The position numbers and the translations under genes are program-made. Positions 26,728-58,084 of a DNA stretch of 64,000 bases are shown here, piece after piece. The stretch is from an uncultured Alphaproteobacteria bacterium (GTDB lineage: Bacteria; Bacteroidota; Ignavibacteria; Palsa-1295): positions 11,659 to 75,658 of the forward strand of contig CAYOJJ010000007.1 in NCBI GenBank assembly GCA_964404255.1, written 5' to 3'. The notes under the pieces were generated by a model, which was not told the DNA's origin, ran no database searches, and saw only the letters and a program-made list of their open reading frames with translations. Positions within the stretch are counted from its first letter, which is position 1; every line of letters starts with the position of its first letter.

Positions 26728-29157
26728 ATGAAAACCGTAACGATAGCTGTTGCAAGCATTCTCGCCATTATTATGGCGGCGGTTGCTCCTGCACAGACGG
26801 TTCAAAGTGTTTCTCCGGGGAAGAAAGCTGTTTTTGAACCTGGCTTTTTATATGTGAAATTTACGGCAAAGAGCCATATTAAATCTTACAATCTCGCTGT
26901 TGGAAAACCGACCGGGAATAAGGAATTAGATAACGTGTTGTCGGAGATCGGCGTAACGGAAATTCATGCGTTCGATCATGTAACGCGCGATAATGTTAAT
27001 GCCTGGGCTTTTGCTGCTGATAGAACTGCCGAGATCGAGATCAGAACAACTGAAAATCCCATTTCGCTTGAAGAGGCTGAGGCCAAATTACAGGCTCTTG
27101 GTGTCGTCGAGATCGCTGCGAGAAAAATGATCTTCCAACCCTGCGTTGTTATTCCTAACGATCAGGGTTACTCCTCCCAATGGGCATTACCAAAAATGCA
27201 ATTACCCCAAGCCTGGGATCTGAGCAAAGGTGATAGCAACGTTATTATTGCAGTACTCGATGAAGGAGTAAATTACCTCCATGAAGACCTCCAGAAAAAT
27301 CTGGCGATCAATTATGGGGAAATGGGCAAGGATAAGGACGGCAAAGATAAAGCTACCAACGGGATCGATGACGATAAGGATGGTAAGGTCGATAACTGGC
27401 GCGGCTGGGATCTCGCTGGAGGCAATGGGAGCCCGACAACTCTCGGAGATAATGATCCAATGCCCGGGCCCGGTGAAGGCCATGGTACGTTTGTAGCCGG
27501 TTGTGCTGCTGCAACACCCAATAATACTCTCGGAGTAGCCGGTACAGGATATAATTGCCATTATATGCCGGTTAAATGTACTGCCGATACCGGAAAGAAC
27601 GCCGGTAGTATCAATTATGGGTATTCCGGTATTTATTATGCAGCCACTCATGGAGCTCGGCTGATTAACTGTTCCTGGGGTGGGTCTGCCCAAGGCGCAA
27701 CGACCAACGATATTATTTATCTTCAAAGCTTTATTGATTCGGCCAATGCTCATGGAGCATTGGTTGTCGCCGCTGCAGGAAACGATGGAAAGAATACCGA
27801 TAATGAAGGCTTTATTCCGGCTTGCCTGAATAATCTTCTTTCGGTCGGTGCGACCCAGAAAAATACTCCAACTCAGGGAGATACAGTTATCGGCTTTTCC
27901 AATTATGGCCGACGCATCAAAGTATATGCGCCCGGTGGTGATATTTACTCTACCCAATTTCCGGGTACGAATAATTATGGATTTTCCGGCGGGACATCCT
28001 TTGCCTGTCCGCTCACGGCCGGTATTGCCGGGCTGGTATGGGCAAAATATCCGGAATGGTCCGGCTCTATCGTTACTGCACAGATCGTAAAAACCTGCGA
28101 TCCGATCTCTTTCCCAGCCGATAAAAATTTATATTGGGGAAGAGTGAATGCCTATAAAGCACTCGCTGCTCCGGTCGTCCCGGGCTTAGTGGTAAAAGGG
28201 TATTCGTTGGATGGTGTTCCGAATGGTACTATCGAATATCTTAATAAGGAATTTACAGTCACCGTAACTCTGAAGAATGTAGCTGCCAACTGGACTTTCA
28301 CCACGGCCAAACTTGCTTCAGACGATCTTTATGATGTAACACAGGGTACTTCTTCGCTCGGCAGTCTTTCGGCCGGTGCTCTTAAAACGGTTTCGTTCAG
28401 CTTCCAGCGTAATGGTAATGACGATGATGAAAATTTACCGTTGAAAATAGTATTAAGCGATGGAAATACGTATAGCGATACCGAATATGTGACTATACCT
28501 ATTACCGGCGATAATATTTACACAAAGCCACCGGTTGTTGCCCCGCAGAGCTATAGCATCGATGGTGTACCCAATGGCTCCCTGGAATATATCAATAAAA
28601 AATACCAATTAGATCTTTCCTTAAAAAATAGCGGCGGCCCGGCTTCTATAACAGCTATTCTTATCCCCCGAACGGGATATAGCATTCAGCAGGGAATATC
28701 GGCTCTCGGCAACATAGCAACCGAAGCTTCGAAGACGGCAATGTTCCAATTCACCCGCGATAGCAGTGACGACGGTCATTCGCTCCCGATGGATATTGCA
28801 ATATCCGATAATAACACTTATAAGGATACTATCCATTTAAATATTGCGATCACGGGTAATAAAGTACTGACCGATGCGGTCGCCACTACCCCGGCTATTT
28901 CCCCAAGAATGTATGTAATACCGAACCCGGCTATTAATTCAGCAAAACTAATGCTGAGCTTGCTGCGTGAGACAGATGTAACCCTGCGGATCACCGATCT
29001 TATGGGACGAACCATCAAGACGCTTACTCCCGGCGCTTTTGCCGAGGGGCAAAGTGAATATGAACTCCCCTTGGAAGGACTTTCCGGTGGAGTCTATATT
29101 CTTCATCTTGAAAGTTCGGCTGGCGAACACTACGTTACCCGTTTGGTATTGCAATAA
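26728..29157 (+). CDS. Subtilisin-like S8 serine peptidase with a C-terminal type-IX-secretion sorting domain, inserted between nuoL and nuoM
   Basis: Signal peptide; catalytic-site motifs HGTFVAG (His) and GTSFACPLTAG (Ser) (the Asp of the triad is presumably in AVLDEGV); Ca-binding-like DDDKDGKVDNW; C-terminal ...GVYILHLESSAGEHYVTRLVLQ. Confidence 0.85.
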   Translation: MKTVTIAVASILAIIMAAVAPAQTVQSVSPGKKAVFEPGFLYVKFTAKSHIKSYNLAVGKPTGNKELDNVLSEIGVTEIHAFDHVTRDNVNAWAFAADRTAEIEIRTTENPISLEEAEAKLQALGVVEIAARKMIFQPCVVIPNDQGYSSQWALPKMQLPQAWDLSKGDSNVIIAVLDEGVNYLHEDLQKNLAINYGEMGKDKDGKDKATNGIDDDKDGKVDNWRGWDLAGGNGSPTTLGDNDPMPGPGEGHGTFVAGCAAATPNNTLGVAGTGYNCHYMPVKCTADTGKNAGSINYGYSGIYYAATHGARLINCSWGGSAQGATTNDIIYLQSFIDSANAHGALVVAAAGNDGKNTDNEGFIPACLNNLLSVGATQKNTPTQGDTVIGFSNYGRRIKVYAPGGDIYSTQFPGTNNYGFSGGTSFACPLTAGIAGLVWAKYPEWSGSIVTAQIVKTCDPISFPADKNLYWGRVNAYKALAAPVVPGLVVKGYSLDGVPNGTIEYLNKEFTVTVTLKNVAANWTFTTAKLASDDLYDVTQGTSSLGSLSAGALKTVSFSFQRNGNDDDENLPLKIVLSDGNTYSDTEYVTIPITGDNIYTKPPVVAPQSYSIDGVPNGSLEYINKKYQLDLSLKNSGGPASITAILIPRTGYSIQQGISALGNIATEASKTAMFQFTRDSSDDGHSLPMDIAISDNNTYKDTIHLNIAITGNKVLTDAVATTPAISPRMYVIPNPAINSAKLMLSLLRETDVTLRITDLMGRTIKTLTPGAFAEGQSEYELPLEGLSGGVYILHLESSAGEHYVTRLVLQ

Positions 29158-44386: not shown

Positions 44387-45100
44387 TTGTTTTTTTTGCG
44401 CGTCTTTTTTTGGGTTTTGGTCCTTATCATAGTATGCTCTGAAGCTACTATCGGGCTTGCCCAACAGCGGGATTCTACTTCCTCCGGCGATCCGAATGCT
44501 TTCCGGCTATTACTCGCGCCAACGTCCGTCGGTTTACCGGCTAATCATGGCTCTATTCAGTTAGCTGAATTATCGGTACCCTGTATCAATTATGGTATTA
44601 TTGACGAGCTTATCGTCCGTGGCGGCATAGCTCCGTTTACGATCGACGGACACTTATTATATTTTACCATGGCCGGTCTTGAAGTCTTTAATTATAGCGG
44701 GTTTTCAGGTCTCGGAGGGCTTGCCATAACGAGTATGACGGGTAGCGGCCGCTCGTGGGAAAGTTCGCTCTATGGCTTCGGAGTGCTCGGATATACAAGT
44801 CCAGGGATCGGTATCTATGGCGGCTTTGGCGGAGGATATTCAGCAAGCAGGGAGTCTAATTCTGCTATAGTAATGCTTGGCGCTGTTTTGCCGGTAAGCA
44901 GTCATAATGCGGTGGTAACCGAGAATTGGATCATACCCGAAAGCGGTACTGAAGCAGTGTCTTTAGGAGTCAGGATCTGGGGAAAAGTGCTTTCCGGAGA
45001 TTTTGGGATCATTGCCATTACCAGAGAACATTCCCTGCAATTCCAAACGGTTGCGCCCTGGGTATCGTTATCGTATCACTTCGATGCTTCGGACGAGTAA
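44387..45100 (+). CDS. Hypothetical exported protein (Gly/Ser-rich; possible beta-barrel) between the regulator and the kinase
   Basis: Signal peptide; its stop overlaps the kinase ATG (TAATG). Confidence 0.45.
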   Translation: MFFLRVFFWVLVLIIVCSEATIGLAQQRDSTSSGDPNAFRLLLAPTSVGLPANHGSIQLAELSVPCINYGIIDELIVRGGIAPFTIDGHLLYFTMAGLEVFNYSGFSGLGGLAITSMTGSGRSWESSLYGFGVLGYTSPGIGIYGGFGGGYSASRESNSAIVMLGAVLPVSSHNAVVTENWIIPESGTEAVSLGVRIWGKVLSGDFGIIAITREHSLQFQTVAPWVSLSYHFDASDE

Positions 45101-46922: not shown

Positions 46923-46959
46923 AAAAAAAATGGACTCCCGTACGAGAGTCCATTTTTTT
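46923..46959. terminator. Bidirectional rho-independent terminator
   Basis: aaaaaaaatggactcccgtacgagagtccatttttttg. Confidence 0.7.
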
Positions 46960-46975
46960 GCTATAAATTCTCAGC

Positions 46976-49900
46976 TTAGAAAGTAACTTCGGCGCTTTCC
47001 ACTCTGGCTACCCACCTGACGGTCTCGCTTGTGCCGCCGTTATTCTGGAATTGCACGTCTAATTCATTGCTGGCTGTACCAACGACCCGGACATTCCATC
47101 CCGTCGGTTCTGCACTGGTCAAATTGATGACAGTTGCTCCGGCGGCGATAGTTACCGTACCGCCATTATTGATAGCAACGCCGGTGATCTCCCAGCCACC
47201 GAAGTTTCCTCCGCCTGTTGCCTTGGCAACAACGGTGATATGGAAACTGTGAGCAGCATTAGCCGGCATGGTGATCTTGGCAGATCCGCCATCGAGAAAC
47301 ATCGAAGACCAGGTACCGGAGTTATCGTTAACGGAATTGCGAACGGTCAGTACCGAAGTCTGAGCATCGCCATTGGAAGCAAATGAACCACTGGCCTGAG
47401 CCATCTGTCCGTAATTCGAGGCCGTTGCATTTCTTCCACCGGGGATCATTGCATAAGAACCGGAAGCAGTATTATTGAATCCACCACTAACAACACTATA
47501 GCCTCCTTGTGCTTTATTGGTACCTCCACCGGCAACAACATTATAACCTGGGGCTGATGCATTAGGAGTAGCGAGATTGGAATTACCGCCGCCAACGACG
47601 TTGTACCCCGAGCCATTAGTGGAAGTACCATTGGCTTGATTACTTACACCGCCGGCAATGACATTCGCACCAGAAGTCGTGCCGCTACCGCCCTGGGCGC
47701 TATTCGTATAACCACCGACGATCACATTGAAGCCACCCCAATCGGCTGCGCCGCCGGATGCATTATTGTTTTGTCCGCCTACCACGATATTATATCCGGA
47801 AGGAGCACCGGAGGATGTCGTATTACCACTTGCAGTATTGGCGATACCACCACCGATAAAATTAGCGCCGGAAAAATTACCCGAACTTCCATTGGCATGA
47901 TTACTCAGGCCGCCGGTAACGGTATTGTAGCCACTATTGGAAGATGAACTTCCACCTAAAGCAGTATTACCACTACCGCCGGCTACAGTATTAAAGCCGG
48001 TGCCATCGGCAGTACCACCGTTGGCCTGGTTACTTACACCACCGCCAATACTATTATAGCCGGTATTATTATTTGCCGAGCCTGATGCATGGTTGTTCTG
48101 TCCGCCGGAGATAGTATTTGCTCCTGAATTATTTCCATCGGAGCCGTTGGCAATATTATTAAAACCTCCTCCGATGGTATTAAGGCCAGAGTTTATACCA
48201 TTGCCGCCATTCGCCTGACTGGTATAGGCAGAGCCAATTTGATTGAAGCCGGAGAAGGTGCCAGCTCCGCCGTTGGCATGGTTACTATATCCTCCGACTA
48301 CGGCATTCATACCGGACCAATCGGCACTACCACCATTAGCAGTATTACCATAACCGCCGCTGACGACATTAGCACCACTTGGGGTAGTAGTAGAAGAACC
48401 ACCATTAGCACTATTATTCAAGCCACCGGCAATGGTATTGGCGCCGCTCACAATACCCGAACCACCATTGGCATGATTATTTTGACCACCGGAAACAGTG
48501 TTTGAACCGCTGTTTGAAGACGAACTTCCACCCAGAGCAGTATTACCAAGACCACCGGCAACAGAATTATAACCGGTACCATCGGCAGTACCGCCGTTAG
48601 CCAGGTTATTTATACCTCCTCCAATACTATTCCCACCGCTATTATTATTTGCAGAACCTGCGGCATGATTATTCTCTCCGCCCGAAACAGTATTAAGCCC
48701 GGAATTATTTCCATCACTTCCGGTGGCAATATTATTGAAGCCTCCGCCGATCATATTAAGACCGGAAAGAGAGCCCGTTCCACCATCGGCATGATTAAAG
48801 TATCCGGTTCCGATATGATTAAACCCCGAAAAGGACCCGGTATTACCGGTAGCAGTACCGGAATAGCCACCGCTTATCGTGTTGAAGCCAGACCAATCGC
48901 CGCTATTGGCATTTGCATTATTATTAAACCCACCGGCGATCACATTGCCTCCACTCGGAGTAACAGTAGAAGAACCACCGTTGGCAGTGTTATTACCGCC
49001 GCCGCTAATAGTATTTACACCAGCCACTATTCCGGAACCGCCGTTGGCATGGTTGTTTTGTCCTCCACTAATGGTATTGCCTCCTCCGGTTGAAGCATTA
49101 CTGCCCCCGAGAGCGGTATTACCAGTACCACCGGCAACAGTATTGAATCCCGTACCATCGGCCGCTCCGCCGTTAGCCTGATTATTATTTCCTCCACCAA
49201 TACTATTATAGCCGGTATTATTATTGGCCGTCCCCGAGGCACGGTTGCTCTGGCCGCCACTAATCGTATTCCCACCTGAATTGTTGCCATCGGAGCCATT
49301 GGCAATCTGATTAAATCCGCCACCGATAGTATTTAAGCCCGAGAAGGATCCTATTCCACCATTTGCCTGGCTGATATAGCCAAGACCAATATGATTAAAG
49401 CCCGACATGCTACCGGTATTTCCATTGGCAGAATTAAGATATCCTCCTCCAATGACATTCAATCCGGACCAATCGCCGCTATTTCCACTTGCAGAATTTA
49501 TATAGCCACCACCAATTACATTGGCTCCGCTTGGAGTAGAAGTAGAAGAACCACCATTGGCAGTATTACTTGCACCGCCGGAGATTACATTGAGACCACC
49601 AACGATTCCCGAACCACCATTAGCATGATTGCCTTGACCACCTGCTACCGTATTTGCACCACCTAAGGAGGTGGTACTTCCTCCTAATGCAGTATTGGAG
49701 TTGCCGCCGCCAACAGTATTATAGCCGGCACTCGTGGCCGTACCGCCATTGGCCTGGTTACCGCTACCACCGGCAACAGTATTATATCCAGTTGCATCTG
49801 CAGAACCGCCATTGGCCTGATTTCCACCGCCACCGGCAACAGTATTATAACCTGTATTATTATTGGCACTACCGGAGGCACGGTTGGCTTGACCACCGGC

Positions 49901-51775
49901 AATAGTATTCGCACCTGAGCTATTTCCATCGGAGCCGGAAGCAATATTATTATAACCACCGCTTATGCTATTGTATCCGGAAAGATTCCCATTACCACCA
50001 TTAGCAGTATGCTGCCAACCTCCACTGATATGGTTGCCGCCGGAATTAATACCAGCACTACCATTGGCATTATTGAACATACCACCGCCGACACTATTCA
50101 TACCGGACCAATCGCCAGCGCCGCCATTAGCAGTGTTTCCATACCCGCCAGCAATGGTATTGATACCACTTGGAGATGACGCAGAAGTACCGCCATTAGC
50201 ATTATTGCTATATCCACCGGAAACTACATTGACGCCGCTGAGTGCACCTGAATTACCATTAGCATGGTTACCCTGGCCACCACCTATCGTATTTTGTCCG
50301 CCTAAATTATTAGTACTGCCGCCAAGAGCCGTATTATTGCTGCCGCCTGCTACCGTATTATAACCGGTATTATCTGCGCTACCGCCATTGCTATTATTAC
50401 TTTGGCCACCGCCGACCGTATTAAATCCGGTGCTATTATTGGCTGAACCGTTGGCATTATTACCTTGACCGCCACCGATATGATTTAATCCCGAGCCGCT
50501 GCCGGCGTTACCATTGGCATTATTTGCATAGCCTCCGGAAATGCTATTGTATCCGGAGAGATTGCCTGCCCCTCCGTTGGCATTAGATAGCCAACCGGCG
50601 CTTACATGATTTCCCCCTGAATTGTAGCCATCTCCACCATTAGCATTATTGAACGAACCGCCGCTGATCGAGTTATTGCCAGACCAATCGCCAGAACCAG
50701 AATGGGCGTTATTAACATACCCACCAGCGATAACATTGGCGCCAATAATTCCGGTAGATGTGGTTAGGCTGCCTCCACTGGCATTATTATTATAACCACC
50801 GGAAATAGTATTCGCACCAGATACGTTGCTTCCGGTACCACCGGCCGCATTATTACCGGTTCCACCACCGACGGTATTAGCACCTGATCCCGAAAAAGCA
50901 TTGCCGGTCGCATTGTTATTCGTACCGCCGGCGATCGTATTACCATTGGTTGAATTTCCGGTGCCAGCGCTGGCATTGTTATTCGAGCCGCCTCCGACAA
51001 CATTCCAGCCAGAAGGGGAGCCGGTATTTCCATTCGCATTATTATTACTACCTCCGACTACGACATTGAAGCCCGAGCCATTTCCGGTGTTGCCGTTGGC
51101 ATGATTGCCAGAACCGCCACCCACAAAGTTCATTCCCGAGGAGCCGCCGGTATTACCATTAGCGGTATTGAAGTAACCACCAACGATCACATTCAGACCC
51201 GACTGTGGAGCCCCGGAAGGATCGGCAGCACTGTTAATAGTATTGCTGGCGCCACCACCGATAAAGTTCACATCGGCAAAATTCGCGTTTATACCGGTGA
51301 TCGTAGAATTTACCGCAGAGCCAATAAAATTACAGTTACCACCGTTAATACTACTGCTAATGCCATTACCTATAAAATTGCCGATTAGTCCCGTGCCGAT
51401 CAAGCTTGTAGAGCCGCCATAGATATTTGCTGCCCCTCCGCCGCCGCCCGGTTCGATACGGATAGCGCGAACACCATTTGTGATAATACTAATCGGCGCA
51501 AGGGTAGTACCGGCCGTTGTGCCAAGAAGATTATTGGTACCATCGATGCCGGAAAGAGCATTTCCTTGTGTAAGCCAGGCCGTAGTGCCAAGGCTTGTGG
51601 TTGTCAGAATGGTGCCTCCACCCGGCGGGAAAATGAAGTTATCCAGGACATTGGTGGTTTGTCCTGTAAGAATTGTGTAGTGACCTGCTCCATCATCTAC
51701 CTGCATTTTATGCTGGGCAAACAAAGGGGTGGCTATTACGGAAATAGCGAATAAGCTACCAAATAGGTATTTCAT
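46976..51775 (-). CDS. Giant secreted glycine/asparagine-rich repeat protein (~1599 aa from MKYLF; the ORF is open to 51826), predicted beta-solenoid fibre
   Basis: Signal peptide ...ATPLFAQ; hundreds of ~19-aa GxNxxxGGxxNxAxG units grouped in ~190-aa super-repeats; C-terminal non-repetitive domain. Confidence 0.7.
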   Translation of the reverse strand: MKYLFGSLFAISVIATPLFAQHKMQVDDGAGHYTILTGQTTNVLDNFIFPPGGGTILTTTSLGTTAWLTQGNALSGIDGTNNLLGTTAGTTLAPISIITNGVRAIRIEPGGGGGAANIYGGSTSLIGTGLIGNFIGNGISSSINGGNCNFIGSAVNSTITGINANFADVNFIGGGASNTINSAADPSGAPQSGLNVIVGGYFNTANGNTGGSSGMNFVGGGSGNHANGNTGNGSGFNVVVGGSNNNANGNTGSPSGWNVVGGGSNNNASAGTGNSTNGNTIAGGTNNNATGNAFSGSGANTVGGGTGNNAAGGTGSNVSGANTISGGYNNNASGGSLTTSTGIIGANVIAGGYVNNAHSGSGDWSGNNSISGGSFNNANGGDGYNSGGNHVSAGWLSNANGGAGNLSGYNSISGGYANNANGNAGSGSGLNHIGGGQGNNANGSANNSTGFNTVGGGQSNNSNGGSADNTGYNTVAGGSNNTALGGSTNNLGGQNTIGGGQGNHANGNSGALSGVNVVSGGYSNNANGGTSASSPSGINTIAGGYGNTANGGAGDWSGMNSVGGGMFNNANGSAGINSGGNHISGGWQHTANGGNGNLSGYNSISGGYNNIASGSDGNSSGANTIAGGQANRASGSANNNTGYNTVAGGGGNQANGGSADATGYNTVAGGSGNQANGGTATSAGYNTVGGGNSNTALGGSTTSLGGANTVAGGQGNHANGGSGIVGGLNVISGGASNTANGGSSTSTPSGANVIGGGYINSASGNSGDWSGLNVIGGGYLNSANGNTGSMSGFNHIGLGYISQANGGIGSFSGLNTIGGGFNQIANGSDGNNSGGNTISGGQSNRASGTANNNTGYNSIGGGNNNQANGGAADGTGFNTVAGGTGNTALGGSNASTGGGNTISGGQNNHANGGSGIVAGVNTISGGGNNTANGGSSTVTPSGGNVIAGGFNNNANANSGDWSGFNTISGGYSGTATGNTGSFSGFNHIGTGYFNHADGGTGSLSGLNMIGGGFNNIATGSDGNNSGLNTVSGGENNHAAGSANNNSGGNSIGGGINNLANGGTADGTGYNSVAGGLGNTALGGSSSSNSGSNTVSGGQNNHANGGSGIVSGANTIAGGLNNSANGGSSTTTPSGANVVSGGYGNTANGGSADWSGMNAVVGGYSNHANGGAGTFSGFNQIGSAYTSQANGGNGINSGLNTIGGGFNNIANGSDGNNSGANTISGGQNNHASGSANNNTGYNSIGGGVSNQANGGTADGTGFNTVAGGSGNTALGGSSSSNSGYNTVTGGLSNHANGSSGNFSGANFIGGGIANTASGNTTSSGAPSGYNIVVGGQNNNASGGAADWGGFNVIVGGYTNSAQGGSGTTSGANVIAGGVSNQANGTSTNGSGYNVVGGGNSNLATPNASAPGYNVVAGGGTNKAQGGYSVVSGGFNNTASGSYAMIPGGRNATASNYGQMAQASGSFASNGDAQTSVLTVRNSVNDNSGTWSSMFLDGGSAKITMPANAAHSFHITVVAKATGGGNFGGWEITGVAINNGGTVTIAAGATVINLTSAEPTGWNVRVVGTASNELDVQFQNNGGTSETVRWVARVESAEVTF
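47600..51100. repeat. Hierarchical coding tandem repeats (~57-bp units, ~570-bp super-repeats) inside the giant gene
   Basis: Recurrence of SGDWSG(M/L/F)N every ~190 aa; very low complexity. Confidence 0.6.
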
Positions 51776-51889
51776 TGGGGAATGACTGGTAAAATAAAAA
51801 ATACTGCTCAGAACGTAACGGCGCAAATATACGGGAAAAAGAGCAAAGTTAAGGGAGAAGGGTATATCGATATACTATTACGTTATAAA

Positions 51890-51921
51890 ATAAAAAAACC
51901 GGCGTAAAGGCCGGTTTTTTC
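51890..51921. terminator. Bidirectional rho-independent terminator
   Basis: aaaaaaaccggcgtaaaggccggtttttt. Confidence 0.65.
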
Positions 51922-51979
51922 GATCATTAGTAAAACTAAGATCGTTCCTGTGATCCCGTGGCAGGGATCGCAACTTATA

Positions 51980-53863
51980 TTAGGGGATCGTGGCATTAAT
52001 ACCAAAGAACACATTACCTGGGCCAGTTGGGTTGCTATTTGGTATGATTCTGATCGATAGTAAGTCGCCGGCAGTTACTGAAAGATTAGTGGCATTATTA
52101 CCACTGGTTTGTGCATTCCCTGAAAGGGTTATACTCGGCCCACTGTTAGAGCCATTCTGCCTTACAGTATAGGTAAAGGAATTTCCGGTACCAGGAGCAT
52201 TTTCGCACTGCACATATAAGGATCTAATAGTACAATCAACAGGTACTATAACCTGAAAATCAGCTTCGGTTGTACCGGGAGAACTTATTCCGCTTGGGCA
52301 GGCAAATTCTGTATTAGTTGAACTGACGGTACCTGAGACCATGTGCCCGCTCCAGACAATATTATTTGTAGTCGGGGTTGTCCAACCAAGTGTGGGAGTA
52401 GCAGTACCGCCACCACTGGCAATAGTAAGTACATCTCCGTTAGCGGTGCCGGCGGAAGTTGCCGGAAGTGTATAGGTTGCATTTGCAGTGGCCCCCGATA
52501 CCAAAGCGGTAGAGAAGGTATTGGCAGCATTATTTAATTTGAGCGCTTTACCGCTATTGACAATAACAGCACCGTTGGTACCGGTGCCGGTATTGTTTCC
52601 GGCTACGAGGGTAATATTACCGCCATTTTGATTGGTACCTGCTGCATTTCCGGCTGTTACGGTTACGTTACCACCAGCCCCGGTAGTAGAAGCATCGGTA
52701 CCAGTAATAGTTACTGCAGCACCGGCTGCCGTACCGGTCGAAGTGCCACCGGTCAGGTTTAACGAACCGCCCTGGCCTCCGCCGCCAGCATTACCGCCGC
52801 GGATAGTAGCCGATCCACCATTACCACTGGTTGCTCCACCCTGGCCACCGGATACTAATACTGTTCCGCCACCGCCGGTTGTACCCGGGGTACCGCCGCT
52901 TAAAATGGAGTTACCGCCGGAACCAAGCCCACTGCCAGCTCCGCCATTGAAAGTGAGGTTTCCACCATTATGACTGGCTCCGCCGGTACCTGTGCCGGTA
53001 CCACCATTAATATTAATAGCACCTCCGGTGCCACCGCTGGCACCGCCCGTACCTGCCGAAATACTAATATCTCCACCATTGCCGGTGGTATTACCAGTTC
53101 CGGTCTGCATAATAAATGATTTACCGGCTGTGCCAGCCGAAGCACCATCCGGGGTCGAAATATCAAGATTAGTACCACTGCCGGTTGTATTGAGTACTAT
53201 CCCTTTGGAAATACCCGAACCGGTTGCTGTCGTTGTAATAGTCAGGCCGGTTGCGCTATTATTTGTCGCATTGGTTGCTGTTGAATTTATCCTTGCTCCT
53301 AATGCTGCTGCATTTACGTTCGTGGCTGAATACGAAATATCGAACAAATAATTATTTGCTGCGATATTAGTAGTATTCTGGGTTGTCGTTGCTCCGTAAG
53401 TAACGCCGGTGACGGAAACAGGGGACCAGGTAAGTGTACCTGAGCCATTGTTTGTAAGTACACCAGCCGCATTGGCGGGGATCGTATTACCGAGAATTTT
53501 ATTGACAGTAATAACACCAGCATTTGTAATACTGGCATCGCCGGTTAATGCAACATCGGAAGCGACATTCGTACCATTGCCCACAAAAATATGGGCGCTC
53601 GTAAGTGTCGATGATAATCCTGCAGCACCCCAGCTTAATGTACCCGAACCATTGTTCGTAAGTACCCCTGCTGCATTCCCGGTGGGAAGCGTCAGGGTAA
53701 ACGGGGTTGTGAAACTGCCTGTTTGATCGGCCTGTAAGGTCAATTGGACGGTACCGGCTGTACCACCGCCAAGAATAACTTTTCTCGCATACTCAAAGCC
53801 ATAAGTCTGCGCTGAAGCTGCCGAAGCTGTAAGCAAAGCGACCAAGATTAGGAGTCTGTTCAT
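51980..53863 (-). CDS. Secreted glycine/threonine-rich fibrous repeat protein (paralogous family)
   Basis: Signal peptide MNRLLILVALLTASAASAQ; N-terminal module similar to 53938-55668; Gly-rich repeats. Confidence 0.65.
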   Translation of the reverse strand: MNRLLILVALLTASAASAQTYGFEYARKVILGGGTAGTVQLTLQADQTGSFTTPFTLTLPTGNAAGVLTNNGSGTLSWGAAGLSSTLTSAHIFVGNGTNVASDVALTGDASITNAGVITVNKILGNTIPANAAGVLTNNGSGTLTWSPVSVTGVTYGATTTQNTTNIAANNYLFDISYSATNVNAAALGARINSTATNATNNSATGLTITTTATGSGISKGIVLNTTGSGTNLDISTPDGASAGTAGKSFIMQTGTGNTTGNGGDISISAGTGGASGGTGGAININGGTGTGTGGASHNGGNLTFNGGAGSGLGSGGNSILSGGTPGTTGGGGTVLVSGGQGGATSGNGGSATIRGGNAGGGGQGGSLNLTGGTSTGTAAGAAVTITGTDASTTGAGGNVTVTAGNAAGTNQNGGNITLVAGNNTGTGTNGAVIVNSGKALKLNNAANTFSTALVSGATANATYTLPATSAGTANGDVLTIASGGGTATPTLGWTTPTTNNIVWSGHMVSGTVSSTNTEFACPSGISSPGTTEADFQVIVPVDCTIRSLYVQCENAPGTGNSFTYTVRQNGSNSGPSITLSGNAQTSGNNATNLSVTAGDLLSIRIIPNSNPTGPGNVFFGINATIP

Positions 53864-53937
53864 ATAACTGCTACCGTCCAATTGATTTAAACTTAGTTAT
53901 TTCGTTACAAAGAATATTCTCTATCAATGATGGGAAA

Positions 53938-55668
53938 TTAGTTGATAGCGATAACTCTCCAGCGACTGATACTGCCATCATACATCAGTGTAACTGTACC
54001 ATCGGCATCGACGATAATATCGCCGCCTTTAATGCGAAAACCATTACTCGGTGTATTCGCATTGTTATTTAGAAGAGTGAAGTTATTTGTACCCGTATTC
54101 ACGAGGATTACAATTCTTCCGTCAACACCATCGCTTAAGCCACGGACGGCAAAGCCGGTGCTGGTTGCCGATGCCTTAAAATAAGTATTCGTAGTACCGA
54201 TCGTATAATCACTGGAAGTAGTAATAGAGATCGTGCTTGCAGCAGTATATTGTGTTGCACCGAAGGTTTGGGTACCGGTCCAGGTATGGGCATTCGAAAG
54301 ATTAAACGTGGGGTTCGGATACGTACCGCTAAGATCGCCACCGGCAGCACCGTTCGGCGGTAAAGAGGTAGGTCCTCCGGTGATCTTGCTGTATGCAATT
54401 GCAGCGGTCGGCGATACATCGGCATCAACGATAGTACCGTCAGCAATTTTAGCGCTGGTGATAGCATTTGCCGCTACCGTAGGATTTGGGTAGGTACCGG
54501 TGAGATCTCCACCCGCCGCACCGCTTGGCGGTAAAGAAGTCGGTCCGCCACTGATCTTGCTATATGCAATTGCAGCGGTCGGCGATACATCGGCATCAAC
54601 GATAGTACCGTCAGCAATTTTAGCGCTGGTGATAGCATTTGCCGCTACCGTAGGATTTGGGTAGGTACCGGTAAGATCTCCACCCGCCGCACCGCTTGGC
54701 GGTAAGGAAGTTGGGCCGCCGCTGATCTTACTGTATGCAATAGCGGCAGTCGGTGATACATCGGCATCAACGATCGTCCCATCGGCGATCTTCGCACTGG
54801 TGATAGCATTTGCTGCTACCGTAGGATTTGGGTAGGTACCGGTGAGATCACCACCTGCAGCACCACTTGGCGGTAAGGAGGTCGGGCCGCCGGTAATTTT
54901 ACTATACTGAATAGCAGCCGTCGGCGATACATCGGCATCAACAATGCTACCGGCAAGATTTAATTTACTATAGGCAATAGCTGCTGTCGGGCTGACATCG
55001 GCATTGACGATCGTTCCATCAGCGATCTTAGCGCTGGTTACAGCATTAGCGGCAATAACCGGGTTCGGGTACGTACCCGTGAGATCGCCGCCTGCCGCAC
55101 CACTTGGTGGAAGCGAGGTCGGTCCTCCGGTGATCTTGCTGTACTGGATAGCGGCTGTCGGTGAAACGTCAGCATCAACGATGGCGCCATCGAGGATCTT
55201 CGCACTATTTACCGCACCGTTTGCGATCGTAAGAGTGCCGGTGCCGTCGATGGTTGCATCTCCACCCATAGGGGTGCTGTTCCAGGTACCACTATTAGCG
55301 ATAAGCAGGTTGCCGGCAGTTGCAGTAGTTGTTCCAAGGGCAACGCCATTAATTCTGGCGACAGTATTCGATCCCGGGGCTCCCGTTACATCGCCGGCTA
55401 AGACAATGGAAAGAGTAGTAGGGCTTGTCCAGCTTAGTAGCCCTGAGCCATTGGTCGTCAGTACATATCCATTGGTAATACCGGTGCTCGGGAAGGTATA
55501 GACTGCGCTTCCCAGCGCATCGGTCTGAATAGTGGTGGTATTCGTGGTAGAAGTACCTCCGCCGGCTAAGACCAATTTAGTGGCATAATCGGTCTTATAT
55601 GTTTGGGCAGATGCTATATTACCAAGCGCCAGGACAGCAAGCGCAATGGCAGATAATGTTTTTTTCAT
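53938..55668 (-). CDS. Secreted fibrous repeat protein with near-perfect 57-aa tandem repeats (tail-fibre-like AKIADGTIV / GDLTGTYPNP motifs)
   Basis: Signal peptide MKKTLSAIALAVLALGNIASAQ; repeat DADVSPTAAIAYSKISGGPTSLPPSGAAGGDLTGTYPNPTVAANAITSAKIADGTIV in about 5 copies. Confidence 0.7.
   Translation of the reverse strand: MKKTLSAIALAVLALGNIASAQTYKTDYATKLVLAGGGTSTTNTTTIQTDALGSAVYTFPSTGITNGYVLTTNGSGLLSWTSPTTLSIVLAGDVTGAPGSNTVARINGVALGTTTATAGNLLIANSGTWNSTPMGGDATIDGTGTLTIANGAVNSAKILDGAIVDADVSPTAAIQYSKITGGPTSLPPSGAAGGDLTGTYPNPVIAANAVTSAKIADGTIVNADVSPTAAIAYSKLNLAGSIVDADVSPTAAIQYSKITGGPTSLPPSGAAGGDLTGTYPNPTVAANAITSAKIADGTIVDADVSPTAAIAYSKISGGPTSLPPSGAAGGDLTGTYPNPTVAANAITSAKIADGTIVDADVSPTAAIAYSKISGGPTSLPPSGAAGGDLTGTYPNPTVAANAITSAKIADGTIVDADVSPTAAIAYSKITGGPTSLPPNGAAGGDLSGTYPNPTFNLSNAHTWTGTQTFGATQYTAASTISITTSSDYTIGTTNTYFKASATSTGFAVRGLSDGVDGRIVILVNTGTNNFTLLNNNANTPSNGFRIKGGDIIVDADGTVTLMYDGSISRWRVIAIN
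54230..55190. repeat. 171-bp near-perfect tandem repeat array (about 5 copies, one truncated) inside the CDS
   Basis: Identical DNA blocks, e.g. gcaatagcggcagtcggtgatacatcggcatcaacgat... recurring every 171 bp. Confidence 0.75.
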
Positions 55669-55706
55669 AGTTGTCGTGTGTGTGGTTGTATCCGTGGAAA
55701 ATTCTA

Positions 55707-56543
55707 TCAGTAGGTCGAAACTACTTTCCAGAAGGTAGACGCCGCATCATATACTAATGTTGCTGCGCTATTATGCCCGAGGATGATATCTCCTCCGGGA
55801 TTAAGATCGAAACGATTGCCGGCTGAAGAACCGCTATTATCATTTTTGAGTACAATAGGCTGGGTACCGATATTGGTTATAATAACCAAATGTCCGTCGG
55901 GAATACCGGCATTATTAATTCCTGTAAGATCTATAGGCCCTCCCGTGCCATTATTCAAGCGGAAATATGAAGCAGAGGGGGAAAGCAAAAGATTGTTTGT
56001 GTTTCCTAATAATGAGCCGGCGCCGGTGTAGGTATTATCGACGGAAGTATTGAGCGTTGCGGTACTATTAGACCAACTAAGATTGCCGGAGCCATCATTT
56101 ACAAGCACCTGGTTAGATGTTCCCTGTGACGAAGGAAAGGAATAAGCGACGTTATTAATCTTTGTAATATTGCCGCTATTATTGACGGAAAATTGACCGC
56201 CGGAGCCAATCGTAACAACGCCGGTTTGGCTGATACTCATTCTGGTATTAGGACCACCGGAACCGGTAACGAAATTAATAGGGGTGTTATCGAGAGTGCC
56301 CAGTTGATTGGAGCCCCCGATGCCAGTATTGCCACCTAATGCCCAGGCAAAAGTAGGTATTGCACCGGAAGTTAAAAGTACTCCGCCACCAGCAGGTAGT
56401 TGAAAATTATCGACTGCATTAGTAGTTTGGCCTTTAAGGACCGAGTAGTGGCCGGCGCCATCATCGACTTGTAAAAAATGACCTTGTGCAAAAGCTGAAG
56501 AGGCTGTAATCAACAGCGCTGCACCCAATACTAAATTTTTCAT
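55707..56543 (-). CDS. Secreted fibrous-family protein (short paralog; N-terminal module as in the giant protein)
   Basis: Signal peptide ...SAFAQ; N-terminal QVDDGAGHYSVLKGQTTNAVDNF is ~70% identical to the giant protein's N-terminus. Confidence 0.65.
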   Translation of the reverse strand: MKNLVLGAALLITASSAFAQGHFLQVDDGAGHYSVLKGQTTNAVDNFQLPAGGGVLLTSGAIPTFAWALGGNTGIGGSNQLGTLDNTPINFVTGSGGPNTRMSISQTGVVTIGSGGQFSVNNSGNITKINNVAYSFPSSQGTSNQVLVNDGSGNLSWSNSTATLNTSVDNTYTGAGSLLGNTNNLLLSPSASYFRLNNGTGGPIDLTGINNAGIPDGHLVIITNIGTQPIVLKNDNSGSSAGNRFDLNPGGDIILGHNSAATLVYDAASTFWKVVSTY

Positions 56544-57955: not shown

Positions 57956-58011
57956 GGGATGAACAAAAACAAAAAAGCCGCCCTCGTCTTGGGGCGGCAG
58001 TAAGTCACTTG

Positions 58012-58084
<73 letters not shown>

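Follow-up and report, generated by a model that had tools for sequence, protein, structure and literature searches.

The locus examined here raises the question of whether four neighbouring genes, whose products combine secretion signals with modules common to phage fibres, are the debris of a phage or encode fibres that the cell makes for itself. The genes, which we call G1 to G4, are chromosomal and co-oriented on the minus strand of a 64,000-nucleotide stretch of DNA (the window, by which we mean the whole of the sequence analysed), and the host is a Kapabacteria/Ignavibacteria-type bacterium of the Bacteroidota-Chlorobi group. The ORF list places G1 at 46976-51775 (1599 aa counted from the ATG at MKYLFG), G2 at 51980-53863 (627 aa), G3 at 53938-55668 (576 aa) and G4 at 55707-56543 (278 aa), exactly as in a first-pass annotation made from the letters alone, which had taken the products for secreted, repetitive, tail-fibre-like fibre proteins, a description that our analysis bears out. 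We lean towards the view that G1-G4 form a lineage-specific, chromosomal, Sec-exported fibre family with proposed roles in docking and ligand binding. Most likely they are cell-surface adhesins, where we infer both the surface location and the adhesion.

The arrangement of the genes differs in one respect from what had been proposed. The first-pass annotation had each gene probably transcribed separately, with terminators in the intergenic regions generally. Terminator-like hairpins are present only 3′ of G2 (51892-51921, minus strand, a 12-bp stem then a T-run) and, resembling an intrinsic terminator, 3′ of G1 (46924-46959, minus strand, a 16-bp stem then a T-run); none was found in the 38-nt gap between G4 and G3 or in the 74-nt gap between G3 and G2. 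Because the hairpins occur only at these two sites, G4-G3-G2 is probably, as judged from sequence, a single operon ending at the hairpin behind G2, and the order of its genes is kept in other genomes. G1 appears to be a separately transcribed, very long addition to this three-gene unit, with an estimated size of roughly tens of nanometres. A sigma-70 promoter scan gave 19 sites against 21.5 expected and was uninformative. Weak evidence comes from TATATTTG, a Bacteroidetes-type -7 motif situated 49 nt upstream of where G1 starts.

All four proteins start with a basic n-region, a hydrophobic core and A-x-A followed by Gln, in the manner of a Sec/SPI-type signal peptide, as called by eye and with a heuristic, without SignalP. 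The signal peptides occupy 51716-51775 in G1, 53810-53863 in G2, 55606-55668 in G3 and 56487-56543 in G4 (all minus strand), with cleavage between LFA and QH, ASA and QT, ASA and QT, and AFA and QG, respectively. It had been noted that all of them end in AQ; the Sec signal stands for all four, but AQ is not a feature of the family, since cleavage before Gln is the general Bacteroidetes Q-rule (PMC5837995) and also holds for other, unrelated secreted proteins in the window. The mature N-terminal Gln is probably cyclised to pyroglutamate. The two types of N-terminal module that had been described are real and are conserved in homologues. Module A, with the consensus QHxLQ(V/L)DDGxGHY...F.LP.GGG.LLT, is carried by G1 (~51590-51715, minus strand), where it matches A-type genes elsewhere, and by G4 (~56364-56486, minus strand), where it begins at the mature Gln; in the alignment of the G4 family (A1), Q20, H22, D27, D28, G29, A30, G31 and H32 are invariant. 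Module B, with the consensus QTYKxDYATKxVLAGxGT, is carried by G3 (~55423-55605, minus strand) and, as a variant that matches B-type genes in other loci, by G2 (~53609-53809, minus strand). A search of the PDB with the A1 profile gave no meaningful match. Shared ancestry of the two modules is not supported by hhalign, which gives a probability of 9%, and only a short FTLP..G..LLT..W motif is common to both.

The distribution of these modules bears directly on the question of a phage origin. The combination of signal peptide and N-module was seen only in chromosomal, non-phage settings, in Kapaibacterium and Ignavibacteriae MAGs, which fits the original proposal of a cellular gene family rather than a prophage and answers its suggestion that other genomes be searched for the N-module. 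In one such genome (locus L001) the order G4-G3-G2 is kept between dnaN-recF-dciA and a 2-oxoacid dehydrogenase E1 gene; this orthologous cassette lacks G1, its G3 orthologue is likewise annotated DUF5907, and the body and tip of its third gene differ from those of G2. A scan of metagenomes for G3 orthologues returned only a twin of the L001 contig. Elsewhere, a protein with a signal peptide and module B (P0024) adjoins three K1-lyase_C genes and an arginine biosynthesis operon, so that tips of the K1-lyase_C type are carried by sister genes; another relative (P0012) lies within an 874-kb contig in a non-phage context, and in two loci (L091 and L092) an A gene is followed directly by a B gene. 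Tandem arrays of such genes reach nine (locus L005, where every product has a signal peptide with cleavage ahead of Gln), and G4-G3-G2 is a recurring order. The fibre genes are all that the neighbourhoods in the window and in ten related loci have in common, with no shared accessory, usher or regulator gene; the histidine kinase/response regulator pair and the SpoIIE/PP2C gene pointed out earlier as flanking genes are not conserved neighbours across these ten loci.

If the cluster were what is left of a prophage, tailocin or contractile injection system, its products would be built into a phage-like particle inside the cytoplasm. Such a history could account for the phage tail-fibre modules in all four proteins, for the tRNA-Gly gene 1.5 kb upstream of the cluster and for the phage tail collar genes that adjoin fibre genes at locus L007. 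Nevertheless, we regard such an origin as very improbable and largely refuted by context, signal peptides and scans of viral collections. The cleavable signal peptides of G1-G4 and their relatives are incompatible with cytoplasmic virion assembly. No phage or integrase Pfam domain (capsid, sheath, tube, baseplate, terminase, integrase or lysis) was detected in the window ORFs scanned (~20 of the ~45 ORFs of >=150 aa), and the window is housekeeping DNA containing the nuo (NADH dehydrogenase) operon, gcvT, a two-component system and ABC transporters. Over the length of the cluster the GC content stays level, with no compositional anomaly, and the homologous cassettes sit in differing housekeeping contexts. 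Finally, neither N-module core was seen in the viral loci and contigs examined: the module-A core occurs at 10 places in the genome loci but is missing from all 78 viral loci, the DNA pattern of the module-B core was absent from 2.9 million viral contigs although the same pattern recovers G3 and four orthologues, and tblastn alignments to 50,697 phage genomes never reach the N-modules.

Behind the N-modules the proteins consist of repeats, and the Gly/Asn/Thr-rich, repetitive character ascribed to them is confirmed. Gly makes up 25% and Asn 17% of G1, whose repeat body (47543-51331, minus strand) comprises ~59 units of 21 aa over ~1,260 residues with the pattern N-[TV]-[IV]-x-G-G-x-x-N-x-A-N-G-G-x-x-x-x-S-G-x. 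The autocorrelation has peaks at 21 and 192 aa, the latter corresponding to a super-repeat of 192 aa (576 nt), and the DNA repeat families D1 and D7 in G1 have the same 576-nt spacing with 61-77% identity. Pfam and NCBIfam gave nothing for G1 at E<=1; in phmmer searches of the PDB, however, residues 918-1227 matched the head of the trimeric autotransporter BpaC (1.3e-7), and UspA1 was matched too. The C-terminal tip (46979-47500, minus strand, residues 1426-1599) consists of three 14-aa repeats of the YadA/UspA1-head type and then a jelly-roll beta-sandwich, and the profile of this region (A3) matches the UspA1 head at 1.9e-22. An AlphaFold model of the tip (pLDDT 81, pTM 0.78) has the tail fibre gp42 of phage Kp9 and the Fri1 tailspike as its top PDB matches; in BFVD it has 109 matches at E<=1e-3, the top one being an uncultured Caudovirales protein (TMq 0.88, rmsd 2.4 A, 29% identity). 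By sequence, the tip found no match in the 50,697 phage genomes.

The long G1 body invites a structural explanation, in which the Gly/Asn/Thr beta-solenoid would serve as a building material of the envelope, whether in an S-layer-like coat, a sheath, spinae or a surface that binds ice or minerals. The extreme regularity of the 21-aa repeat over ~1,260 residues and a weak match to the ice-recrystallisation-inhibition beta-roll 3ULT (E 0.0037; 6.8e-4 with a profile) can be cited for it. We think this quite unlikely, as the 3ULT match is far weaker than that to the trimeric autotransporter head (1.9e-22), G1 is missing from the orthologous L001 cassette, and the tips vary and are fibre-like. The S-layer proteins known from Bacteroidota, moreover, use C-terminal domains of the type IX secretion system (T9SS), which G1-G4 do not have; the gliding or S-layer role once suggested for the cluster is unsupported on the same point, although two other proteins of the window do carry such a domain. 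The Pfam scan that found no Por_Secre_tail (TIGR04183) in G1-G4 detected it at 8669-10648 (2.2e-9) and at 26728-29157 (2.7e-6), and we therefore rejected T9SS cargo as an identity for G1-G4. G1-G4 resemble T9SS adhesins of the SprB/RemA type in being large, repetitive and secreted and in belonging to the same bacterial group, but differ from them in lacking that domain. A trimeric autotransporter was also ruled out by Pfam/NCBIfam scans, in which the C-terminal YadA-type anchor is missing. G1 shares head-type beta-roll repeats, a signal peptide and an adhesin-like architecture with the type Vc proteins YadA, UspA1 and BpaC; in contrast to them it has neither the YadA-type beta-barrel anchor nor a coiled-coil stalk, its main repeat is 21 aa instead of 14-16 aa, and its polarity is reversed, with the conserved end N-terminal and the variable tip C-terminal.

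The three remaining proteins also draw on phage-type modules. The stalk of G3 (~54289-55227, minus strand) is a DUF5907 repeat region that matches the Pfam family at 4.9e-15 (55.9 bits against a cutoff of 27, in 4 stretches) and PHROG 2012, 'minor tail protein', at 7e-25. By tblastn, G3 residues 148-433 are ~32% identical to tail-fibre-like proteins of T7-like cyanophages, the stalk being closest to cyanopodovirus fibres; no meaningful match was found among PDB sequences. Within the gene, a 171-nt (57 aa) tandem repeat runs for 3.6 copies (54323-54942) with 89% matches and 0 indels in TRF, and copies of the corresponding repeat family (D2) are 83-90% identical. Such near-identical 171-nt units, together with the swapping of modules between orthologues, make the suggested recombination hotspot plausible, but neither a diversity-generating retroelement (DGR) nor any other mechanism dedicated to variation is present. 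DGR-driven hypervariation was ruled out, as a reverse transcriptase and a template/variable repeat pair are absent: there is no second copy of the 3′ gene segments in the window and no YxDD motif in ORFs >200 aa.

The C-terminal domains had been described as all distinct; G3 (53941-54261, minus strand) and G4 (55710-56036, minus strand) in fact have one type of beta-sandwich in common, each matching the other's orthologues at 1e-14 to 1e-16, which leaves three tip types among G1-G4. In the monomer model of G4 the C-terminal part has a pLDDT of ~80 and phage tailspikes as its top PDB matches, while residues 1-170 have a pLDDT <50; for the N-terminal halves, monomer models cannot be relied on. 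Orthologues of G4 that are ~50% identical score 28-32 bits against Phage_depo_C (cutoff 25), whereas G4 and G3 themselves give no match to it at E<=1. Phage_depo_C was detected in 19 of 57 profile relatives (best E 3e-29), among which T4 gp36 and, only in 2 distant ones, Mtd_N also occur. An internal module of G4 (~56064-56201, minus strand; SGNITKINNVAYSFPSSQG..VLVNDGSGNLSW) is 72% identical to the repeats of a protein without signal peptide that is encoded on a viral contig, and the module has 185 viral relatives in IMG/VR. The Gly-rich middle of G2 (~52544-53101, minus strand; GG.G..GG.I.I.GG) has a relative, P0034, without a signal peptide inside a phage structural module. The distinct C-terminal domain of G2 (51983-52363, minus strand) is common to another secreted protein (P0026) and has no meaningful match in the PDB; G2 as a whole matched nothing in Pfam, among PDB sequences or in the 50,697 phage genomes. 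The stalk repeats and C-terminal domains of G1-G4 are thus homologous or structurally equivalent to those of phage tail fibres and tailspikes, specifically the DUF5907 fibres of T7-like cyanophages, the Phage_depo_C depolymerases and the fibres in which YadA-like head repeats precede a jelly-roll tip. They differ from them in having a cleavable signal peptide and a cell-specific N-module in place of a tail/baseplate attachment domain, and in lying outside phage genomes.

Since Phage_depo_C and K1-lyase_C are depolymerase C-terminal domains, an enzymatic or glycan-processing role may exist. G1-G4 could accordingly be secreted glycan-binding or glycan-degrading proteins, released or periplasmic: tailspike-like depolymerases, or modifiers of biofilm or capsule like Pantoea WceF. 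The C-terminal families are named from phage depolymerases (with Phage_depo_C and K1-lyase_C in sister genes), the model of the G1 tip resembles WceF weakly, a Galbitalea MAG encodes a Phage_depo_C protein with pectate-lyase-like proteins beside glycosyltransferases, and an outer-membrane anchoring signal was not found in G1-G4. We nevertheless consider this explanation unlikely. G1-G4 contain no pectate-lyase, beta-helix hydrolase or other catalytic Pfam domain at E<=1, the C-terminal beta-sandwiches are the non-catalytic part of depolymerases, and an N-module conserved across paralogues with different tips fits common docking better than an enzyme family.

The fibre family that we favour has a close parallel. 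The mosaic adhesive trimer (MAT) fibres of Bdellovibrio bacteriovorus (Caulton et al. 2024, PMC10769870) start with a signal peptide and a conserved ~130-aa N-domain and continue as a fibre whose tip varies; they are located on the surface, and the N-domain is thought to bind a surface element. Both are chromosomal multi-paralogue families in which a conserved module right after the signal peptide leads into a long phage-tail-fibre-like stalk, with a C-terminal tip that appears to be interchangeable in G1-G4 too, the N-domains being compared by description only. G1-G4 are best read as putative functional analogues of MAT fibres. There are differences: the host belongs to the Bacteroidota-Chlorobi group and not to the Bdellovibrionota; there are two N-module types, which hhalign does not unite (9%) and which show no sequence kinship to any solved structure; the genes lie in tandem, some of them in a probable operon, and keep the order A-B-B; and the stalks use DUF5907 and 21-aa YadA-head-like repeats. 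A chaperone-protease C-terminus of the S74 type is present in 13 of 21 MAT fibres (PMC10769870), whereas Peptidase_S74 is absent from G1-G4 and from the ten Pfam families of the 57 relatives. Fold matches of the G4 model to the tips of the MAT fibre Bd1334 were insignificant (E >1).

Each protein is a mosaic of signal peptide, N-module at the mature N-terminus, repetitive beta-rich stalk and tail-fibre/tailspike-type C-terminal beta-sandwich tip, and G4, G3 and G2 constitute a conserved three-gene unit of the composition A, B, B. The chains may trimerise after export, like their phage and autotransporter-head relatives; the conserved N-module would then hold the fibre to some part of the cell envelope or to the partner fibre, and the variable distal domain would recognise a ligand, for which a glycan on the surface of another cell or of a substrate is the likeliest candidate. 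Pfam/NCBIfam scans for domains and inspection of G1-G4 found no T9SS C-terminal domain, YadA-type anchor or lipobox cysteine. With the signals for T9SS, autotransporter anchoring and lipoproteins absent, surface display is putative, and as an outer-membrane route is not identifiable in G1-G4, the proteins could stay periplasmic or be released. A different use of exported proteins that resemble phage receptor-binding proteins would be as decoys, that is, as fibre mimics that shield the producer's phage receptors or block those of competitors. The window also contains two STAND-type (DUF4062-NACHT/TPR) genes, but they lie 40 kb from the cluster and the conserved gene context gives no hint of defence; this purely speculative idea has a very slim chance of being correct.

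An arrangement such as that of G1-G4 is uncommon, and a similar one is already known in Bdellovibrio. Our results suggest that exported cellular fibres built from recruited phage tail-fibre modules are not peculiar to that organism, and that an uncultivated branch of the Bacteroidota-Chlorobi group has such fibres with N-terminal modules of its own and a conserved operon. They also raise the question of how putative trimeric fibres that carry no signal for T9SS, type V secretion or lipoprotein export are brought to the surface. In a profile search, related modules occurred in >11,000 protein clusters, nearly all unannotated or DUF-named, so one characterised example would annotate much dark matter. 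For Kapabacteria, a group of poorly known ecology, G1-G4 are candidate determinants of partner specificity. A bolder version of the fibre reading, to which we give little credence, is that the A-B-B unit is a dedicated cell-cell recognition apparatus of Kapabacteria/Ignavibacteria. The two previously undescribed N-modules would serve as sorting and docking tags for a new outer-membrane display route that is neither T9SS, type V secretion nor lipoprotein export, the phage-derived tips would attach to a partner or prey, and lineage-specific additions such as G1 would extend the unit. Cyanobacteria could be one candidate partner or prey, because an enrichment culture of cyanobacteria yielded a published Kapabacteriales MAG (PMC7714850) and the nearest relatives of the G3 stalk are fibres of cyanopodoviruses.

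The four ORFs of the cluster lie on the minus strand exactly where the first-pass annotation had placed them, as G1 (46976-51775, 1599 aa), G2 (51980-53863, 627 aa), G3 (53938-55668, 576 aa) and G4 (55707-56543, 278 aa). Each begins with a typical SPI-type signal peptide that ends in A-x-A, is followed by Gln and lacks a lipobox cysteine; the predicted cleavage sites are LFA|QH in G1, ASA|QT in both G2 and G3, and AFA|QG in G4. The "AQ" ending noted in the first pass is thus present in all four but is not a family trait, because among the other secreted proteins of the window four or five likewise have a Gln laid bare by the predicted cleavage; it reflects the Bacteroidetes "Q-rule", by which the new N-terminal Gln turns into pyroglutamate (PMC5837995, PMC10653852). 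The proposal that terminators separate all the genes, each being transcribed on its own, is not supported. Terminator-like hairpins on the minus strand were found only 3′ of G2 (51921-51892) and 3′ of G1 (46959-46924), with none in the 38-nt G4/G3 gap or the 74-nt G3/G2 gap. Because hairpins follow only G2 and G1, the arrangement suggests that G4-G3-G2 are probably a single transcription unit and G1 a second one.

G1-G4 are all mosaics built from phage-fibre blocks. The composition and repeats attributed to the four proteins were borne out. Gly makes up 25% of G1 and Asn 17%. Its 21-residue repeat, N-[TV]-[IV]-x-G-G-x-x-N-x-A-N-G-G-x4-S-G-x, occurs about 59 times, and these units are grouped into a super-repeat of 192 aa (576 nt) with 61-77% DNA identity between copies. 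In G3 a 171-nt unit is present in 3.6 copies that are 89% identical. The regularity of the G1 repeat, together with a weak match to 3ULT, could point to a structural coat or ice-binding role, which we regard as improbable. DGR-mediated variation was considered and is excluded for the G1-G4 locus. Trimeric-autotransporter head beta-rolls align to the G1 body (BpaC, 1.3e-7), and a profile of the G1 C-terminus matches the UspA1 head at 1.9e-22. The last 174 residues of G1 gave a confident model (pLDDT 81, pTM 0.78) of YadA-type repeats followed by a jelly-roll, whose best PDB matches are the tail fibre gp42 of phage Kp9 and Acinetobacter phage tailspikes. In BFVD 109 entries match this tip at E ≤ 1e-3, several carrying a YadA-like head annotation, and the top one is an uncultured Caudovirales protein (TMq 0.88, rmsd 2.4 Å, 29% identity).

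G3 is a DUF5907 repeat protein (55.9 bits in Pfam, where the cutoff is 27); it is matched at 7e-25 by PHROG 2012, "minor tail protein", and over residues 148-433 it shows about 32% identity to T7-like cyanophage proteins that resemble tail fibres. Pfam gave no match for G4 itself; its orthologues of about 50% identity contain the domain "Phage depolymerase C-terminal beta sandwich", and the C-terminal part of G4, which was modelled with confidence (pLDDT ~80), is best matched by the phage tailspikes Solidus gp83 and CBA120 TSP4. Annotated tail fibre proteins are 43% identical to G4 residues 206-275, and the internal module of G4, SGNITKINNVAYSFPSSQG..VLVNDGSGNLSW, occurs in three copies of about 72% identity in a viral-contig protein of 940 aa that has no signal peptide. 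This protein is encoded at 7401-10223 (+) of locus L016, on a 236-kb IMG/VR contig that was matched three separate times (L016, L020, L090). Relatives of the Gly-rich middle of G2 also lack a signal peptide, and one of them, P0034, sits between a phage capsid gene and an SU10-adaptor gene. The C-terminal domain of G2, which has neither a Pfam nor a PDB sequence match, is common to another secreted protein, P0026. G3 and G4 end in one and the same C-terminal domain, contrary to the view that each gene has a distinct one.

The signal peptides and the N-terminal modules that follow them are the parts that are not phage-like. Both module types recognised in the first pass were recovered in the cluster and its relatives. 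Module A (G1, G4) starts at the mature N-terminus and reads Q-H-x-L-Q-(V/L)-D-D-G-x-G-H-Y ... F-x-L-P-x-G-G-G-x-L-L-T, with Q20, H22, D27, D28, G29, A30, G31 and H32 invariant in the G4 family, and module B (G2, G3) reads Q-T-Y-K-x-D-Y-A-T-K-x-V-L-A-G-x-G-T. Homology between the two was not demonstrable (hhalign probability 9%), and a PDB sequence search returned no meaningful relative of either. In a scan of 185,579 species, with one genome per species, relatives were found in Candidatus Kapaibacterium and Ignavibacteriae MAGs, and the module-A core was seen only in these loci and in the related locus L001. A search of IMG/VR found 185 viral relatives; the best 80 of these, at 78 loci, match internal and C-terminal modules only, and the module-A core was present at none of the 78. 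For the module-B core, a degenerate DNA pattern that recovers G3 and four orthologues had no match across 2.9 million viral contigs, and in a tblastn search of 50,697 phage genomes the N-terminal modules were never covered by a match.

The surroundings of the cluster are those of an ordinary chromosome. Besides the nuo (NADH dehydrogenase) operon and gcvT, they hold genes for ABC transporters, for an OmpR-type response regulator paired with a HAMP histidine kinase, and for a SpoIIE/PP2C phosphatase. No phage or integrase domain was found among the scanned window ORFs, and GC is flat across the cluster. Judged by the taxonomy of the homologues, the Q-rule and the T9SS C-terminal domains, the DNA probably comes from a Kapabacteria-like organism. 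The window GC is about 48%; a published Kapabacteriales MAG has a value of 48.4% (PMC7714850). A tRNA-Gly gene upstream of the cluster is the only island sign. A prophage or tailocin remnant, as the phage-fibre modules might suggest, conflicts with both the signal peptides and this context, and we consider it very improbable; homologues of the full-length proteins are not consistently prophage-encoded. The tRNA-Gly(GCC) gene (57977-58084, minus strand) has its own terminator hairpin, and the SpoIIE/PP2C gene follows immediately downstream. The mechanically called 452-aa ORF of the phosphatase overlaps the tRNA gene, so that the real start must be later, at about 57958. The phosphatase had been described as GAF-PP2C; the SpoIIE/PP2C domain is present, but GAF was not detected at Pfam E ≤ 0.001. 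Between the response-regulator and histidine-kinase genes, 44387-45100 (+) encodes a 237-aa secreted protein (cleavage GLA|QQ) without a Pfam match, and this gene runs right up to the start codon of the kinase.

In other genomes, related cassettes occupy different chromosomal places. L001 keeps the order of the cluster, with a G4-like gene, a G3-like gene with DUF5907 and a B-type third gene; it is flanked by dnaN-recF-dciA on one side and on the other by the E1 gene of a 2-oxoacid dehydrogenase. In a Kapaibacterium MAG (L005, 1371-18804, plus strand) there are nine consecutive fibre genes, each with a signal peptide cut before Gln. They contain the A, B, B triad and a member as long as 1819 aa, and a further three are of about 310 aa and include at least one that has a K1-lyase_C tip. 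Downstream of P0024, a protein with a signal peptide and module B, are three K1-lyase_C genes and an arginine biosynthesis operon, and at L091 and L092 a B gene immediately follows an A gene. Apart from the fibre genes, no genes are common to the window and the related loci. Another Kapaibacterium MAG locus (L007) has three Phage Tail Collar (PF07484) genes in tandem (3762-5392, minus strand) beside module-A fibre genes and a G1-like Gly/Asn-repeat protein (655-2703); downstream are housekeeping genes, namely probable GAPDH, phosphoglycerate kinase and RuvA genes, judged from N-terminal sequences.

Strict homologues of G4 are rare: a word-seeded search of 5.8 billion sequences gave 18. When 1.84 billion representatives were searched with a profile, 11,185 proteins reached E ≤ 1e-3, among them 129 that reached E ≤ 1e-30; most of the 11,185 have internal or C-terminal modules in common, often in many copies. 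Of the 148 top matches, 59 have signal-peptide-like N-termini, and a subset starts with module A. Other Pfam domains in 57 of these matches were Phage_depo_C (19), DUF5907 (3), Mtd_N (2) and T4 gp36 (1), and neither the T9SS C-terminal domain nor S74 was among the families reported for them. The only Galbitalea locus matched in the species scan, and through the C-terminal domain only, is L009 of an actinobacterial MAG, where two pectate-lyase-like proteins and one Phage_depo_C protein, together spanning 5173-11875 (plus strand), adjoin glycosyltransferases; tailspike-type domains thus occur in cellular polysaccharide loci as well. This locus and the names of the tip domains would favor a depolymerase or glycan-processing role for G1-G4, yet no catalytic domain is detectable in them and we think such a role unlikely. 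At a distance of 30 kb from the cluster, a fifth gene (15856-17835, plus strand, 659 aa) encodes a secreted fibre-like protein with a signal peptide ending GDA|Q followed by IPRTISYQGIL, an N-terminal type that also heads a Phage_depo_C-type gene in locus L003 and several profile matches; the protein carries a motif resembling DUF5907, AKLAAGSVNSSNIEDGSIANADL, and has DUF7452 (2.6e-20) as its C-terminal domain.

By analogy, the closest functional precedent for G1-G4 is the mosaic adhesive trimer (MAT) family of Bdellovibrio, in which a signal peptide and an invariant N-domain of about 130 aa, thought to bind a surface element, precede a phage-like fibre whose tip can be swapped (PMC10769870). 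G1-G4 differ in coming from another phylum, in their two new N-terminal modules and in their conserved three-gene core. The first-pass reading of tail-fibre-like secreted fibres outside a prophage was largely right in kind; their function can only be inferred. G1-G4 would be exported by Sec, with cleavage baring a Gln that is probably cyclised, and the chains may trimerise like their fibre and TAA-head relatives. The conserved N-module would dock onto an envelope component or a partner fibre, the variable C-terminal beta-sandwich would bind a ligand, most likely a glycan, and a G1 fibre would be tens of nanometres long. Because the A-then-B gene order is strict, A and B proteins might co-assemble. 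A role as phage decoys is speculation to which we give very little credence. Outer-membrane crossing is the weakest link of the proposed mechanism. G1-G4 have no T9SS C-terminal domain, autotransporter anchor or lipoprotein signal. The same scan found T9SS Por_Secre_tail on a multicopper oxidase (8669-10648, plus strand) and an S8 peptidase (subtilase; 26728-29157, plus strand), so the organism has T9SS cargo and the scan an internal positive control.

Elsewhere in the window, two adjacent minus-strand genes (1496-4336 and 5384-8359) encode large DUF4062-NACHT/TPR proteins of the STAND NTPase type, which may form a pair with a part in defence or signalling. An M-box (Mg2+) riboswitch (60928-61101, plus strand, 141.9 bits) lies upstream of an ABC-type permease gene (61235-62986).
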